DNA of 6,552 nucleotides, from the IMG/VR virus record IMGVR_UViG_2778261527_000003; one strand, written 5' to 3'. Position 1 is the first letter of the stretch, and every line of letters starts with the position of its first letter. The notes under the pieces are model-generated. The model ran no database searches. It was not told the origin of the DNA and was given only the letters and a program-made list of their open reading frames with translations. A program made the position numbers and the translations under genes. The stretch is from a virus. Taxonomy: Duplodnaviria; Heunggongvirae; Uroviricota; Caudoviricetes. Positions 1 through 6,276 of this stretch are shown piece after piece.

Positions 1-564
1 TACCCGATACTTTTTCCATGCTTCCAGCAACGAGATTTCTTCCTCCGTTGCAATTTCCAGATCTGCAGCATCCTGAAGCGGCGCAATATGCTCACTGGCT
101 ACCTGCATCAGGTTGTTTTTTGTTTCTTCCGCCTCCCGGATCCGGAACAGTTTTTCTGCTTCCGTATCCTTCACCCAGGCTGTGCCGTTCCACTTCTGAA
201 ACTCCCCTTCCGGCGATAACCAGGTAACATTTTTCGGTAACGGACCGAGTTCAGAAATAAATAACGCGTCGCCGGAAGCCACGTCATAAACCGTTTTACC
301 CCGATGATCTTCAACGAGATGCCACGATGCCTCATCACTGTTGAAAACAGCCACAAAGCCAGCAGGAATATCTGGTGGTGCAATATCGGTACTGTTTGCT
401 GGCAGACCTGTATGAGGCGGAATATATGCGTCACCTTCACCAATAAATTCATTAGTTCCGGCCAGCAGATTATAAATTTTTATGGTCCGTGGTTGTTCAC
501 TCATTCTGAATGCCATTATACTCGCACCGAAAATGTCAGCCAGCTGCTTTTTGTTGACTTCCAT
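1..564 (-). CDS. tfa: In-frame fusion ORF: Nu1 codons 1-16 joined to a lambda Tfa-like tail fiber assembly protein; 3' end runs off the window start
   Basis: Own translation of the minus strand from ATG at 564..562 gives [16 protein letters not shown] (lambda Nu1 N-terminus as recalled) followed by [172 protein letters not shown], with no stop down to position 1. The second part matches lambda Tfa as recalled. Tfa's own ATG is at 516..514. Not in the ORF track because no stop lies inside the window. Confidence 0.8.
517..564 (-). pseudogene. nu1: Remnant of terminase small subunit gene Nu1 (first 16 codons only), immediately downstream of cosB
   Basis: [16 protein letters not shown] encoded at 564..517 on the minus strand; the homology stops abruptly and continues as tfa. 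Position relative to cosB R1 is as in lambda. Confidence 0.75.
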
Positions 565-584
565 TGTTCATTCCACGGACAAAA

Positions 585-713
585 ACAGAGAAAGGAAACG
601 ACAGAGGCCAAAAAGCTCGCTTTCAGCACCTGTCGTTTCCTTTCTTTTCAGGGGGTATTTTAAATAAAAACATTAAGTTACGACGAAGAAGAACGGAAAC
701 ACCTTAAACCGGA
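585..713 (-). other. cosB terminase-binding region: R1 (585-606), R2 (629-647, inverted), IHF site I1 (about 651-690), R3 (691-713)
   Basis: Three copies of the CGTTTCC(T/G)TTCT motif: R1 and R3 in one orientation, R2 inverted, with an AT-rich IHF-like segment between R2 and R3. Order cosN-R3-I1-R2-R1-Nu1 start as in lambda (recalled). Confidence 0.75.
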
Positions 714-741
714 AAATTTTCATAAATAGCGAAAACCCGCG

Positions 742-753
742 AGGTCGCCGCCC
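742..753 (-). other. cosN cohesive-end sequence (12 nt, GGGCGGCGACCT on the minus strand)
   Basis: Plus strand aggtcgccgccc at 742-753 is the reverse complement of the lambda 12-nt cohesive end; flanked by CGCGGGTTTTCGCTATT on the Nu1 side and GTTACG on the other side, as at the lambda end junction (recalled). Confidence 0.8.
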
Positions 754-952
754 CGTAACCTGTCGGATCGCCGGAAAGGACCCGCAAAATGATAATAATT
801 ATCATCTACATGTCACAACGTGCATCTACGCCATCAAACCACGTCAAATAATCAATTATGACGCAGGTATCGTATTAATTGATCCGCATCAACTTAACGT
901 AAAAACAACTTCAGACAATACAAATCAGCGACACTGAATACGGGGCAACCTC

Positions 953-1147
953 ATGTCAACGAAGAACAGAACCCGCAGAACAACAACCCGCAACATCCGC
1001 TTTCCTAACCAAATGATTGAACAAATTAACATCGCTCTTGATCAAAAAGGGTCCGGGAATTTCTCAGCCTGGGTCATTGAAGCCTGCCGTCGGAGGCTAA
1101 CGTCAGAAAAGATAGCATATACATCAATTAAAAGTGATGAAGAATGA
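953..1147 (+). CDS. ylcI: Small YlcI/YnfO-family (DUF3950) prophage protein, 64 aa, possible ribbon-helix-helix fold
   Basis: ORF MSTKNRTRRTTTRNIRFPNQMIEQINIALDQKGSGNFSAWVIEACRRRL...; basic N-terminus followed by a short strand-like segment and two helices. Family assignment from recall, not searched. Weak SD (GGGG) upstream. Confidence 0.55.
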   Translation: MSTKNRTRRTTTRNIRFPNQMIEQINIALDQKGSGNFSAWVIEACRRRLTSEKIAYTSIKSDEE

Positions 1148-1311
1148 ACATCCCGCGTTCTTCCCTCCGAACAGGACGATATTGTAAATTCACTTAATTA
1201 CGAGGGCATTGCAGTAATTGAGTTGCAGTTTTACCACTTTCCTGACAGTGACAGACTGCGTGTTGGCTCTGTCACAGGTTAAGTAGTTTGAATGATTAGC
1301 AGTTATGGTGA

Positions 1312-1518
1312 TCAGTCAACCACCAGGGAATAATCCTTCATATTATTATCGTGCTTCACCAACGCTGCCTCAATTGCCCTGAATGCTTCCAGAGACACCT
1401 TATGTTCTATACATGCAATTACAACATCAGGGTAACTCATAGAAATGGTGCTATTAAGCATATTTTTTACACGAATCAGATCCACGGAGGGATCATCAGC
1501 AGATTGTTCTTTATTCAT
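1312..1518 (-). CDS. ybcW: YbcW-like small prophage protein, 68 aa (lambda right-end orf family)
   Basis: [71 protein letters not shown]; GGAG SD 7 nt upstream of the ATG; same position relative to cos as in lambda/DLP12 (recalled). Confidence 0.7.
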
Positions 1519-1803
1519 TTTGTCGCTCCATGCGCTTGCTCTTCATCTAGCGGTTAAAATATTACTTCAAATCTTTCTGTATGAAGATTTGAGCACGTTG
1601 GCCTTACATACATCTGTCGGTTGTATTTCCCTCCAGAATGCCAGCAGGACCGCACTTTGTTACACAACCAATACTATTAATTGAAAACATTCCTAATATT
1701 TGACATAAATCATCAACAAAACACAAAGAGGTCAGACCAGATTGAAACGATAAAAACGATAATGCAAACTACGCGCCCTCGTATCACATGGAAGGTTTTA
1801 CCA

Positions 1804-2214
1804 ATGGCTCAGGTTGCCATTTTTAAAGAAATATTCGATCAAGTGCGAAAAGATTTAAACTGTGAATTGTTTTATTCTGAACTAAAACGTCACAATGTCT
1901 CACATTATATTTACTATCTAGCCACAGATAATATTCACATTGTGTTAGAAAACGATAACACTGTGTTAATAAAAGGACTTAAAAAGGTTGTAAATGTTAA
2001 ATTCTCAAGAAATACGCATCTTATAGAAACGTCCTTTGATAGGTTGAAATCAAGAGAAATCACATTTCAGCAATACAGGGAAAATCTTGCTAAAGCAGGA
2101 GTTTTCCGATGGGTTACAAATATCCACGAACATAAAAGATATTACTATACCTTTGATAATTCATTACTATTTACTGAGAGCATTCAGAACACTACACAAA
2201 TCTTTCCACGCTAA
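1804..2214 (+). CDS. ybcV: YbcV-like DUF1398 protein (putative envelope protein), 136 aa from ATG 1804
   Basis: ORF ...[51 protein letters not shown]...; GGAAGG SD 8 nt upstream of ATG 1804. The track ORF begins at TTG 1681 and an alternative ATG at 1762 lacks an SD. Sits between bor and ybcW as in lambda/DLP12. Confidence 0.7.
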
Positions 2215-2504
2215 ATCATAACGTCCGGTTTCTTCCGTGTCAGCACCGGGGCGTTGGCATAATGCAATACGTGTACGCGCTAAACCCTGTGTGCATCGTT
2301 TTTAATTATTCCCGGACACTCCCGCAGAGAAGTTCCCCGTCAGGGCTGTGGACATAGTTAATCCGGGAATACAATGACGATTCATCGCACCTGACATACA
2401 TTAATAAATATTAACAATATGAAATTTCAACTCATTGTTTAGGGTTTGTTTAATTTTCTACACATACGATTCTGCGAACTTCAAAAAGCATCGGGAATAA
2501 CACC

Positions 2505-2798
2505 ATGAAAAAAATGCTACTCGCTACTGCGCTGGCCCTGCTTATTACAGGATGTGCTCAACAGACGTTTACTGTTCAAAACAAACAGACAGCAGTAGCA
2601 CCAAAGGAAACCATCACCCATCATTTCTTCGTTTCTGGAATTGGGCAGAAGAAAACTGTCGATGCAGCCAAAATTTGTGGCGGCGCAGAAAATGTTGTTA
2701 AAACAGAAACCCAGCAAACATTCGTAAATGGATTGCTCGGTTTTATTACTTTAGGCATTTATACTCCGCTGGAAGCGCGTGTGTATTGCTCAAAATAA
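2505..2798 (+). CDS. bor: Bor lipoprotein (serum-resistance lipoprotein of lambdoid phages), 97 aa
   Basis: MKKMLLATALALLITGC... signal peptide with lipobox ITGC; full-length match to lambda Bor as recalled; opposite strand to the lysis genes as in lambda. Confidence 0.9.
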   Translation: MKKMLLATALALLITGCAQQTFTVQNKQTAVAPKETITHHFFVSGIGQKKTVDAAKICGGAENVVKTETQQTFVNGLLGFITLGIYTPLEARVYCSK

Positions 2799-2804
2799 TT
2801 GCAT

Positions 2805-2830
2805 GAGTTGCCCATCGATATGGTCAGCTC
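2805..2830. terminator. Imperfect hairpin between convergent bor and Rz (candidate bidirectional terminator)
   Basis: GAGTTGCCCAT-CGAT-ATGGTCAGCTC: 11-nt arms with 2 mismatches; lies in the 31 bp between the bor stop (2798) and the Rz stop (2830-2832). Confidence 0.4.
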
Positions 2831-3291
2831 TATCTGCACTGCTCATTAATATACTTCTGGGTTCCTTCCAGTTGTTTTTGCATAGTGATCAGCCTCTCTC
2901 TGAGGGTGAAATAATCCCGTTCAGCGGTGTCTGCCAGTCGGGGGGAGGCTGCATTATCCACGCCGGAGGCCGTGGTGGCTTCACGCACTGACTGACAGAC
3001 TGCTTTGATGTGCAACCGACGACGACCAGCGGCAACATCATCACGCAGAGCATCATTTTCAGCTTTCGCATCAGCTAACTCCTTCGTGTATTTTGCATCG
3101 AGCGCAGCAACATCACGCTGACGCATCTGCATGTCAGTAATTGCCGCGTTCGCTAGCTTCAGTTCTCTGGCATTTTTGTCGCGCTGGGCTTTGTAGGCGA
3201 TTGCGTTATCACGGTAATGATTGACCGCCCATGACAGGCTGACGATGATGCAGATAATCAGAGCGGATATAATCGCGGTTACTCTGCTCAC
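2830..3291 (-). CDS. rz: Rz inner-membrane spanin (i-spanin), 153 aa, apparent GTG start overlapping the R stop
   Basis: Translation [60 protein letters not shown]...INEQCR, lambda Rz-like; N-terminal TM segment. The codon aligned to the lambda Rz ATG is GTG at 3291..3289 (GTGA overlap with R stop) with GGGGG 7 nt upstream. The track start at 3303 is also GTG and lacks an SD. Confidence 0.8.
2889..3071 (-). CDS. rz1: Rz1 outer-membrane lipoprotein spanin (o-spanin), 60 aa, embedded in Rz in the +1 frame
   Basis: [24 protein letters not shown]...proline-rich...; lipobox VVGC; AAGGAG SD 7 nt upstream; entirely inside the Rz ORF as in lambda. Confidence 0.85.
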
Positions 3292-3785
3292 TGTTGCCCC
3301 CACAAACAGACTTCACGCTCAATCTCACGACGAGTCATCAGGCCTTTCCATTGCTTACCGCCAGCGTATGTCCAGCGACGCAGCTGATCACATGCGCCTT
3401 TGATATCGCCCTGGTTTATTTTGCGAAGAAGCGTCGATGTTCTAAAATTGCCAGCACCCACATTGTAAACGAATGAGTAAAGAGCGCCGCGCGTTGTTTC
3501 CGGTATATCGACTTTGATATACGGGTTAATTTGTCTGGCGACAGTGGCAAGGTCTTTATTCAAGAGTGCTTTGCATTCTGCTTTGGTATACGTTTTACCG
3601 AGCATGATGTCTTTTCCGGTGTGTCCGTGACATACAGTCCATACACCAACAATATCTTTGTATGGTATGTAGCTGACACCTTCCAGACCATCGTTACCAC
3701 TTGGGCCAGTGATTAACACTGATGCTATAGCAATTGCTCCGCCACCAATAGCAGCAGCAACGGCTTTTCGTAATGATGGAGGCAT
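3288..3785 (-). CDS. rrrD: SAR endolysin (T4-lysozyme-family muramidase with N-terminal signal-anchor-release domain), 165 aa, phage 21 R / RrrD type
   Basis: [56 protein letters not shown]...: Gly/Ala-rich weak TM (SAR) followed by an E-x8-D-x5-T catalytic motif; GAGGTG SD; start overlaps the holin stop (TAATG). Confidence 0.85.
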
Positions 3786-4000
3786 TATTCACCTCTCGCA
3801 GCCTTGCGCTTATCTTCTTTAATCTTGAAATAAAGGTTTGTCAGGTACGTCAGCAGGCCAAATACCAGGCTACCCAGCACACCTATTGCTGCCCACTGTG
3901 AGGGAGTGACTTTATCGAGCAGCTGTAAAAACCAGTAACCGGCACTACCTGCTGAGGTGCCATAGGCGACTCCAGTTGTTAACTTATCCATGAATTTCAT
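3785..4000 (-). CDS. essD: Class II pinholin with dual-start motif (phage 21 S / EssD type), 71 aa
   Basis: [71 protein letters not shown]: two TM segments, charged C-terminus, Met1-Lys-Phe-Met4 dual start; AGGTGG SD upstream of ATG 4000. The track ORF extends to an upstream start at 4045, not preferred. Confidence 0.85.
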
Positions 4001-4494
4001 AACCCCACCTCGCAGACAAAGCGGGTGTAAATTGAGGGAATACAACGTATCGCAAAAAAGCAGAAACGTAACTGACTCCGAGTCAGTGAATAACTCAGGT
4101 ATTGAGTTATCAGCTAATATCGAGACTCAAAAAATGGAAAAACCAGCTCGACGGCGGGTTTAAGCTGTGTGACGAAGTAACCACTCTTAACAGCATAACC
4201 AATTTTTTACGTACGTAAACCACTGAATGATATTTATGAGAATGCTACCGAGTGTTCAAAACATCACCACAAATACATAAGAAAACCTCAACAAATAACC
4301 AATAAATAATTTCCAGTGTTATTTTTAGCCGGTTTAAATTAAACAGACGAATTATAGAACCACCATAAATAACAGCCATTAATATAAATTAGCTAATAGA
4401 TTTATTTTTGTTCAAATAAGAGCCATAAATAGGTTTCGATAGAAAAAGTTCAGATAAAAATAGAGATCTACTTCACAAATTAAATGAGAAACTA

Positions 4495-4588
4495 AAACTT
4501 ACATCTTGAAATAATCACATTGATTAGATGAATATTTATCGCGCAGTGACATCATTTTTTAATAATAGTTCAAAAAAAAGGGCTCACG
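4495..4588 (+). promoter_or_regulatory. Porin promoter region with an OmpR-box-like element (about 4499-4518) and SD AAGGG at 4578-4582
   Basis: TTACATCTTGAAATAATCAC resembles ompC/ompF OmpR-binding half-sites (TTTACATTTTGAAACATCTA type, recalled). No unambiguous -35/-10 pair identified by eye. Confidence 0.35.
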
Positions 4589-5686: not shown

Positions 5687-5696
5687 TCTGATTACG

Positions 5697-5736
5697 AAAA
5701 AGATATGTTGCGGGAGGCGTTGCCTCCCCAACATAT
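5697..5736 (-). terminator. Intrinsic terminator for minus-strand transcription, candidate tR' of the late operon
   Basis: On the minus strand: ATATGTTGGGGAGGC-AAC-GCCTCCCGCAACATAT (about 15-bp stem with one bulge) followed directly by CTTTTT (plus-strand AAAAA at 5697-5701). No U-tract on the plus-strand side. Confidence 0.6.
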
Positions 5737-5759
5737 AAGTGGCTCCCTCAAGCCACTTC

Positions 5760-5875
5760 CTTTAGGAGCACAACCTTGCTTCTAACTATATAAACCTTCT
5801 GTTATATATTACCCTTTATTTTTGGGGGCGTTGCAACGCCCCATTTTTAATAACTTTCAGTAAACAATTGGCATA
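5760..5875 (-). promoter_or_regulatory. Expected location of the Q-dependent late promoter (PR'-like) and Q-utilisation site
   Basis: Positional inference: immediately downstream of Q and upstream of the tR'-like terminator. Best sigma70-like candidate is TTGCAA (5831-5836) -N19- TAATAT (5806-5811) on the minus strand; spacing is non-canonical. Confidence 0.3.
5824..5850 (+). terminator. Rho-independent terminator for the porin / IpeX transcript
   Basis: GGGGCGTTGCAACGCCCC palindrome followed by ATTTTTAATAA on the plus strand; the minus-strand side is followed by CAAAAATAAAGGG, so it is unidirectional. Confidence 0.7.
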
Positions 5876-6259
5876 TTAATTAGAGTTATTAACAACGATA
5901 TCCATCTCTAACCGGATATCTAATGCCATTAACATCCCTTCAATTATGCCCTCAGCCTTCTGTAACCTTTTCCCGATATAACCATCAGAGCAGCAATGCT
6001 TACCTGCCAGTGACATGAATGTCATACCGACTACATAATAATCTACTAATAAATCGTGCAAATCGCTGTTGTTCTTTTTCAGACGGGCCATGCACCCGCA
6101 AATGATCATCGCGTCATCGTCACAACATTGCGGGCGAGATTTTACTTTTGAAGGAATTAATCCCTTAAAACCGGCGGCAATGGACGACCAGGTCACATCT
6201 TCATGATTATTAGCCGCCCACGCTCCCCAACGTTCAAGAACCATCTGAATATCACGCAT
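5876..6259 (-). CDS. quuD: Late-gene antitermination protein Q (QuuD-like), 127 aa from ATG 6259
   Basis: [60 protein letters not shown]...KHCCSD...; Cys-rich; GGAG SD 9 nt upstream of ATG 6259. The track start at 6274 is TTG. Matches DLP12 QuuD as recalled. Confidence 0.8.
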
Positions 6260-6276
6260 TAACTTTCTCCACAAAA

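Follow-up and report, generated by a model that had tools for sequence, protein, structure and literature searches.

What controls the intact porin gene carried by this prophage, and what occupies the 543 bp that separate it from the neighboring holin gene? The DNA examined here (the window; 6,552 nucleotides) is a DLP12/PA-2-type lambdoid prophage of E. coli, as indicated by its list of open reading frames (ORFs), its Pfam matches and the RefSeq annotation of identical DNA. Within it, the gap at positions 4046-4588 is bounded on one side by the essD holin gene on the minus strand, and on the other side by the porin gene on the plus strand. An initial annotation, made from the sequence alone, had proposed that an OmpR-box-like element in this gap places the porin under the control of the host EnvZ/OmpR system. 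We favor, with a probability of roughly three in four, a divergent two-part control region in which a CRP- and OmpR-controlled porin promoter shares the gap with a late pR′-tR′ module on the other strand.

The prophage locus and its intact porin gene

The gap is 92% identical over 543 bp to the interval between nmpC and essD in the DLP12 prophage of E. coli K-12, and 95% identical over 543 bp to the region upstream of lc in phage PA-2 (GenBank J02580). These alignments leave the OmpR-like box, the -35 and -10 elements and both annotated CRP sites identical in the window, K-12 and PA-2. The surroundings correspond as well. Q, a porin gene on the opposite strand and a holin gene form the same neighborhood as at the nmpC and lc loci, the gene order is identical, and the neighbors quuD, porin, essD, rrrD, rzpD and bor are all found in the window. 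The gap itself is present in 3166 of 5426 complete E. coli genomes. The coordinates of the features discussed below are collected in Table 1.

Table 1. Features of the porin-holin region and neighboring genes (positions are those of the window).
Feature	Position	Strand	Evidence or remarks
rrrD, rzpD/rzoD, ybcW		-	Window genes
bor, ybcV, ylcI		+	Window genes
essD, S21-type holin, dual start MKFM (ATGs 4000, 3991)	3785..4000	-	Pfam Phage_holin_2_1, E = 2e-35; RefSeq
Two adjoining hairpins, holin leader	4071..4111	-	4111-4089 and 4087-4071; partly common to SfIV
tR′-like intrinsic terminator	4128..4161	-	Stem 4160-4141, then U-run
Conserved initial transcribed block of putative pR′, TAAGAGTGGTTACTTCG...	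4162..4189	-	Presumed Q-loading/pause region
Putative pR′ core	4192..4219	-	-35 TTTACG 4219-4214, 16-bp spacer, -10 TATGCT 4197-4192
AT-rich spacer upstream of porin promoter	4226..4448		About 27% GC; most variable part of the gap
CRP site 2, core AGAGATCTACTTCACA 4462-4477	4460..4480	+	About -72 from the probable start, class I position
OmpR-like element, half-sites GAAACTAAAA / CTTACATCTT / GAAATAATCA	4488..4518	+	Three 10-bp half-sites; includes the box; overlaps -35
Porin core promoter (inferred)	4506..4543	+	-35 TTGAAA 4506-4511, -10 GAATAT 4530-4535, start G 4543 (or 4541)
Porin 5′ UTR, about 45 nt	4544..4588	+	1 of 45 columns variable among 51 alleles
Porin, nmpC/lc allele, 365 aa	4589..5686	+	Pfam Porin_1, E = 1.8e-156; RefSeq 'porin'
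Porin 3′ UTR, ends in intrinsic terminator	5687..5850	+	Stem 5825-5842 and T-run; terminator scan
Strong terminator downstream of Q, inside porin 3′ UTR	5696..5736	-	-21.3 kcal/mol, z = -5.4, then CUUUUUC
quuD, Q antiterminator (933W/H-19B/DLP12 type)	5876..6274	-	Pfam Phage_antitermQ PF06530, E = 9.8e-54

Relative to K-12, the window shows T/C substitutions at 4481, 4485 and 4493, in the stretch that separates the CRP site from the box. It also differs by an indel of 16 bp at 4049-4064, by a single additional A in the leader, and by a mismatched position in its tR′ stem. Among 51 distinct alleles of the region that we gathered from viral contigs, the three T/C polymorphisms are linked and yield two about equally frequent promoter haplotypes (T-T-T in the window and C-C-C in K-12), and one of the three is located inside the first putative OmpR half-site. 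The 16-bp segment at 4049-4064 (ATCGCAAAAAAGCAGA region), which is part of the holin leader and missing from K-12 DLP12, is also polymorphic among these alleles.

Taken as a whole, the gap contains 31.9% GC compared with 43.1% for the entire window. The initial annotation had described it as about 540 bp of AT-rich, non-coding DNA. Its length and its non-coding character hold, but the AT-richness is a property of positions 4201-4588 only (27.6% GC), whereas positions 4046-4200 have a GC content of 42.6% and constitute a separate functional unit. Likewise, the 175 bp of the gap closest to the holin gene are not AT-rich. The alleles vary unequally along the AT-rich part, with 63 of 248 columns variable in 4201-4448 versus 10 of 140 in 4449-4588. 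Two ORFs of the gap, 4245-4379 on the minus strand and 3990-4163 on the plus strand, have no Pfam match and are interrupted in 34 and 22 alleles, respectively, out of 51. Searches for tRNAs and Rfam families returned nothing within the gap, and a search for repeats there found nothing beyond short, low-identity pairs. A generic scan for sigma-70 promoters and terminators detected neither of the gap's promoters nor tR′.

The porin encoded downstream is identical to Lc of PA-2 at 362 of 365 positions, and to fragment 1 of K-12 NmpC at 343 of 346. Its complete ORF, with a full-length Porin_1 domain, sets it apart from K-12 nmpC, which is indeed split by IS5 as the initial annotation had stated. 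An uninterrupted 3′ end of the porin gene is common, since it is present in about 1920 of the 5426 complete E. coli genomes. The earlier suggestion that this is a lysogenic-conversion gene is also supported, since the protein is three residues away from Lc, the classical conversion porin of PA-2. Expression of Lc reportedly lowers the amount of OmpC, which is the receptor of PA-2.

The 3′ UTR of the porin gene, which from its reported location we take to be the ipeX region, ends in a terminator with a predicted fold of -13.9 kcal/mol (z = -3.2). Together with the terminator downstream of Q, this creates a pair of convergent terminators between Q and the porin gene (5696-5736 on the minus strand and 5825-5850 on the plus strand), and a transcript from the Q side would thus overlap that of the porin gene over about 150 nt.

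Two further observations concern other parts of the window. On the plus strand, the start codon of bor (2505) is preceded, at a distance of 53 bp, by a perfect PhoP box, TGTTTAGGGTTTGTTTA (2436-2452), and borD has been reported to belong to the PhoP/Mg2+ stimulon. In addition, the minus strand of positions 1-173 produces a strong Rfam match to IS009 (195 bits, against a gathering score of 117), a candidate small RNA of E. coli prophage regions. This match ends at the window edge.

OmpR and CRP at the porin promoter

The 20-mer that had been noted as resembling an OmpR box, TTACATCTTGAAATAATCAC, occurs only once in the window, at 4499-4518. The three-half-site element that includes it extends from about -55 to -25, across the -35 hexamer, when a start at G 4543 is assumed, and positions 4494-4516 are invariant in all 51 alleles. 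As references for comparison, the sites F1-F3 of ompF and C1-C3 of ompC were read from K-12 DNA. When placed in the OmpR register (4498-4517), the box matches ompC C1 at 14 of 20 positions, which equals the agreement between C1 and F1, the two genuine sites that are most alike. Dinucleotide shuffling of the gap nevertheless yields agreement of 14 of 20 or better with one of the six sites in 81% of cases, and shuffling of the proximal 150 bp alone does so in 42%. A position weight matrix (PWM) made from the six sites leaves the box outside the 15 best matches in the window because the box does not have the C at position 15 that is common to all six. The best PWM score in the gap is equalled by 68% of shuffles, and the matrix is itself weak, with leave-one-out scores ranging from -3.8 to 11.7. 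Neither the PWM scan nor the Hamming scan reveals further OmpR sites in the gap that score above background. Thus, the element exists and can be aligned with the ompC sites as had been claimed, but its resemblance to them is no better than that of shuffled DNA. An OmpR motif is not callable from sequence alone in DNA that is this AT-rich.

Because the motif match is at chance level, support for OmpR regulation comes from published experiments. All of the OmpR data were obtained with K-12, in which the box, -35 and -10 have the same sequence as in the window. A ChIP-exo study reports peak P4 at nmpC (576106-576166), assigns it the mode 'Rep', and lists it as previously characterized and confirmed (Seo et al., 2017). 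The coordinates in that study are those of NC_000913.2, and an offset of +777 at the nmpC locus converts them to version.3. As a check on the conversion, the ompF and ompC peaks land on F1-F2 and C1-C3, respectively, only when the.2-to-.3 offsets are applied. The converted P4 peak has the sequence ACTTCACAAATCAAACGAGAAACCAAAACTTACATCTTGAAATAATCACATTGATTAGATG, which corresponds to window positions 4470-4530. Its center, 4500, falls inside TTACAT, or six of the seven nucleotides of the reported OmpR core GTTACAT. Furthermore, nmpC expression rises 2.4-fold, from 19.0 to 46.5 FPKM, in an ompR knockout (Seo et al., 2017), which identifies OmpR as a repressor. The placement of the element across the -35 fits repression. 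The P4 peak is weak, with a signal-to-noise value of 2.26 compared with 43 for ompF and 65 for ompC. The proposal that the porin is tied to the host EnvZ/OmpR system is therefore supported by published ChIP-exo and knockout results on identical K-12 sequence, with OmpR repressing and CRP providing the main activating input.

Transcription of the porin gene probably begins at G 4543 or at a second G at 4541. A 2024 study of IS5 determined the PnmpC start by 5′ RACE to be a 'G', in agreement with Blasband (1986) and Coll (1994). The G that is located 45 nt upstream of the K-12 ATG corresponds to window position 4543, which is 43 bp from the ChIP-exo center. This assignment carries some uncertainty because the OmpR peak table gives a 'distance to TSS' of +43 which, when read by the sign convention that applies to ompF and ompC, would move the start to an A that is 131 nt, rather than 45 nt, upstream of the ATG. 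We prefer the G at -45 because it is a G, because the CRP site then takes up an activating position, and because this start fits the homologous ompD promoters described below. The activity of PnmpC is reported to depend on the 199 bp upstream of the ATG.

Both CRP sites annotated in J02580 map to identical sequence in the window, at 4165-4185 and 4460-4480. The proximal one, CRP site 2, equals the misc_binding feature at 1363-1383 of that record, and is the only one of the two that fits the CRP core consensus with no more than two mismatches. Genomic SELEX has recovered CRP binding near nmpC, and the 2024 IS5 study describes activation of PnmpC by CRP at two operators, repression by OmpR, IHF and MprA, and post-transcriptional control by RyhB. 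In addition, nmpC is strongly down at pH 4.4, and is both expressed and thermoregulated in strain CFT073.

These reports suggest the following model for the porin half of the gap. The promoter would be weak on its own and would be activated by cAMP-CRP bound to the class I site near -72 (4460-4480). Phosphorylated OmpR would bind at 4488-4518, overlap the -35 and hinder RNA polymerase, so that repression would be steric and porin expression would fall at high osmolarity or low pH. The poorly conserved AT-rich DNA further upstream is probably a mere platform for nucleoid proteins such as IHF and H-NS. Under this scheme, the lysogen would produce the porin at the direction of host regulators and without any dependence on the late operon.

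Could the element instead be plain promoter DNA, consisting of a -35 (TTGAAA) with AT-rich flanks, while the effect of OmpR is either indirect (for example, through sRNAs or changes to the envelope) or is exerted elsewhere in the ChIP-exo footprint? The shuffling results (equally good matches in 42-81% of shuffles), the failure of the PWM to rank the box and the weak ChIP-exo signal at nmpC all favor this explanation, as do two sequence comparisons. Distant ompD promoters share AAACTTA..TTGAA with the prophage promoter but not TTACAT, and an E. albertii allele retains the -35 and the -10 although TTACAT is missing. Nevertheless, we consider this explanation unlikely. The ChIP-exo peak is centered on TTACAT, with its six of seven core nucleotides, the nmpC site had been characterized as an OmpR site before the ChIP-exo study confirmed it, and the change in expression seen in the ompR knockout is in the direction expected for loss of a repressor.

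It is also conceivable that the element is mainly the operator of a different response regulator of the OmpR/PhoB family, with PhoP and CpxR as examples, or that IHF or H-NS acts on the AT-rich tract, with OmpR playing a minor role. PhoP is reported to repress nmpC in E. coli and a PhoP box has been predicted in the Salmonella gene, IHF and MprA are among the named repressors of PnmpC, and positions 4483-4502 on the minus strand match ompC C3 at 15 of 20 positions, which reveals how easily this DNA fits direct-repeat motifs. Yet a scan of the gap for PhoP boxes finds none with three or fewer mismatches at the box, and the nearest candidate (4556-4572) is at chance level, as are the matches to the IHF consensus in the gap. 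Moreover, ChIP-exo and knockout data exist for OmpR, whereas our survey of the literature found no comparable site data for the other regulators. We judge a minor role for OmpR to be very improbable, and retain direct repression by OmpR, combined with activation by CRP, as the preferred reading of the porin promoter.

A probable late promoter on the opposite strand

The holin-proximal portion of the gap resembles a module known from Shiga toxin phages. When positions 4138-4220 are compared with phage records, hundreds of Stx phages match at about 76-77% identity. One of these, Stx2c phage 06-3462, has a putative pR′ and a rho-independent terminator directly after Q. Its annotated pR′ (TTTACG / TATCAT) aligns with the pR′ core of the window, which is invariant in the 51 alleles. 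The adjoining block TAAGAGTGGTTACTTCG is near-invariant among the window, the Stx2c phage, SfIV and phiP27, and is present as a single copy in the window, where none is expected by chance. The tR′-like terminator can be aligned with the one that the 06-3462 annotation places after pR′, and also with its equivalents in SfIV and phiP27, such that the stems are kept and the loops vary. Also, QuuD is 79% identical to the Q protein of 06-3462. From these alignments, pR′ would be expected to be active in the window's prophage, and the minus strand from about 4220 to 4046 would represent part of the phage late operon, comprising pR′, a Q-loading initial transcript, tR′ and the holin leader.

The second CRP site annotated for PA-2, 'CRP site 1' (J02580 1067-1087), falls inside the TAAGAGTGGTTACTTCG block and differs from the CRP core at more than two positions. 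The late promoter, in whose initial transcribed region it is located, accounts better for the conservation of this site.

Several details of this module differ among alleles or annotations. The K-12 allele of tR′ has a predicted fold of -12.0 kcal/mol, whereas the window allele, in which an A at 4145 creates a C·U mismatch, reaches only -5.8 kcal/mol and is no better than shuffles. Position 4145 has two common alleles, A as in the window and C as in K-12. The weak stem is found in 29 of the 51 distinct alleles, and three more carry a G·U variant. The two hairpins in the holin leader fold at -15.5 kcal/mol (z = -2.6), and 5 of 200 shuffles are as good. For the holin itself, the annotated start is either 3991 or 4000, with RefSeq and the K-12 annotation choosing different ones, and the longest ORF extends to 4045. 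The MKFM sequence at 3989-4000 on the minus strand contains two ATGs at a spacing of three codons, a dual-start arrangement also found in lambda S and S21.

A second copy of pR′ is not present next to Q in the window, where the DNA that follows Q has no homology to the pR′ region of Stx phages. The location of the pR′-tR′ module on the holin side, with no homolog beside Q, suggests that the porin cassette is a moron that was inserted between Q and pR′, and that it does not form part of the late transcript. Other properties of the cassette are those of a moron: it has its own promoter, as known from the literature, its own terminator (5825-5842) and upstream DNA of 27% GC, and it is missing at the same site in Stx phages, where Q abuts pR′. 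A different arrangement, in which late transcripts start beside Q and run antisense through the porin gene, was dropped because it is 4138-4220, and not the Q-adjacent DNA, that is homologous to the Stx pR′/tR′ region. In SfIV (1493-2536), an opposite-strand gene is located just upstream of a pR′-like block and holin gene, and so the Q-pR′ junction may be a recurrent site of moron insertion.

Given that the porin promoter and pR′ occupy one 543-bp divergent region, one might speculate that host signals also reach the lysis cassette, although we regard this extension as quite improbable. Coupling could involve 'CRP site 1', which is at about +3 to +23 of pR′ and away from the porin promoter. 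Alternatively, the AT-rich tract could nucleate H-NS or IHF across both promoters, or the weak tR′ could permit Q-independent read-through into the holin and endolysin genes. If true, such coupling would mean that the host conditions basal lysis or the production of vesicles. In K-12 DLP12, NaCl or sucrose, low pH and a temperature of 28 °C repress a reporter of the essD-rrrD-rzpD promoter region (PMC7918800). The cues that repress this lysis reporter are those that lower nmpC, and the reporter fragment (-121 to +650) probably lacks the OmpR box.

Much of what the porin half of the gap reveals is already documented. The control of nmpC/lc by CRP as an activator and OmpR as a repressor is correct and known, as are the IS5 disruption in K-12 and the status of Lc as a lysogenic-conversion porin. 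The observation made in the initial annotation is therefore real and correctly interpreted, but ordinary, and carries little weight as a discovery. What is modestly new is the composite nature of the gap, with a late promoter on the other strand. The useful outputs are a coordinate map of the region, the placement of the porin cassette between Q and pR′, and the re-reading of 'CRP site 1' of J02580 as part of the conserved initial transcript of pR′.

Comparison with known porin and phage promoters

The porin promoter shares several characteristics with those of ompF and ompC. Its target is a general porin gene, its half-sites are phased at 10 bp, its box approaches C1, and OmpR is known from published work to occupy the K-12 nmpC region in vivo. 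However, ompF and ompC carry three tandem 20-bp OmpR sites between -100 and -40 and are activated by OmpR, whereas the window has one element that overlaps the -35, and the nmpC promoter is repressed. The C at position 15 that is common to the six ompF and ompC sites is missing from the box, and the ChIP signal at nmpC is about 20-fold weaker. The porin promoter thus does not match an OmpR-activated promoter of the ompF/ompC type, as defined by three tandem sites and activation.

A second comparison is provided by the chromosomal ompD promoters of Salmonella, Citrobacter, Enterobacter and Lelliottia, which align with the prophage promoter from the CRP site to the -10, and whose porins are 73-79% identical. 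In these promoters a near-consensus CRP site is exactly 10 bp further from the -35, or one helical turn, such that helical phase is preserved. They share AAACTTA..TTGAA around the -35 with the prophage, but TTATTA replaces TTACAT. They also have a longer leader and reside outside any prophage. An invariant sequence of 17 nt, TGAAACTTATTATTGAA, surrounds the -35 of the ompD promoters in all four genera and is found upstream of ompD at a distance of about 230 bp. Together, the ompD promoters and the E. albertii allele indicate that the core promoter is old and constrained, and that the TTACAT half-site belongs to the prophage lineage of E. coli alone.

On the opposite strand, the relevant system is the pR′-qut-tR′ region of Stx phages with a Q of the 933W/H-19B type, in which the promoter hexamers, the initial transcript of about 55 nt and the terminator stem are homologous to those of the window. 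In Stx phages this module overlaps the end of Q, and is followed by tRNA and stx genes. In the window, by contrast, the porin cassette separates it from Q by about 1.65 kb, and the holin gene comes directly after it.
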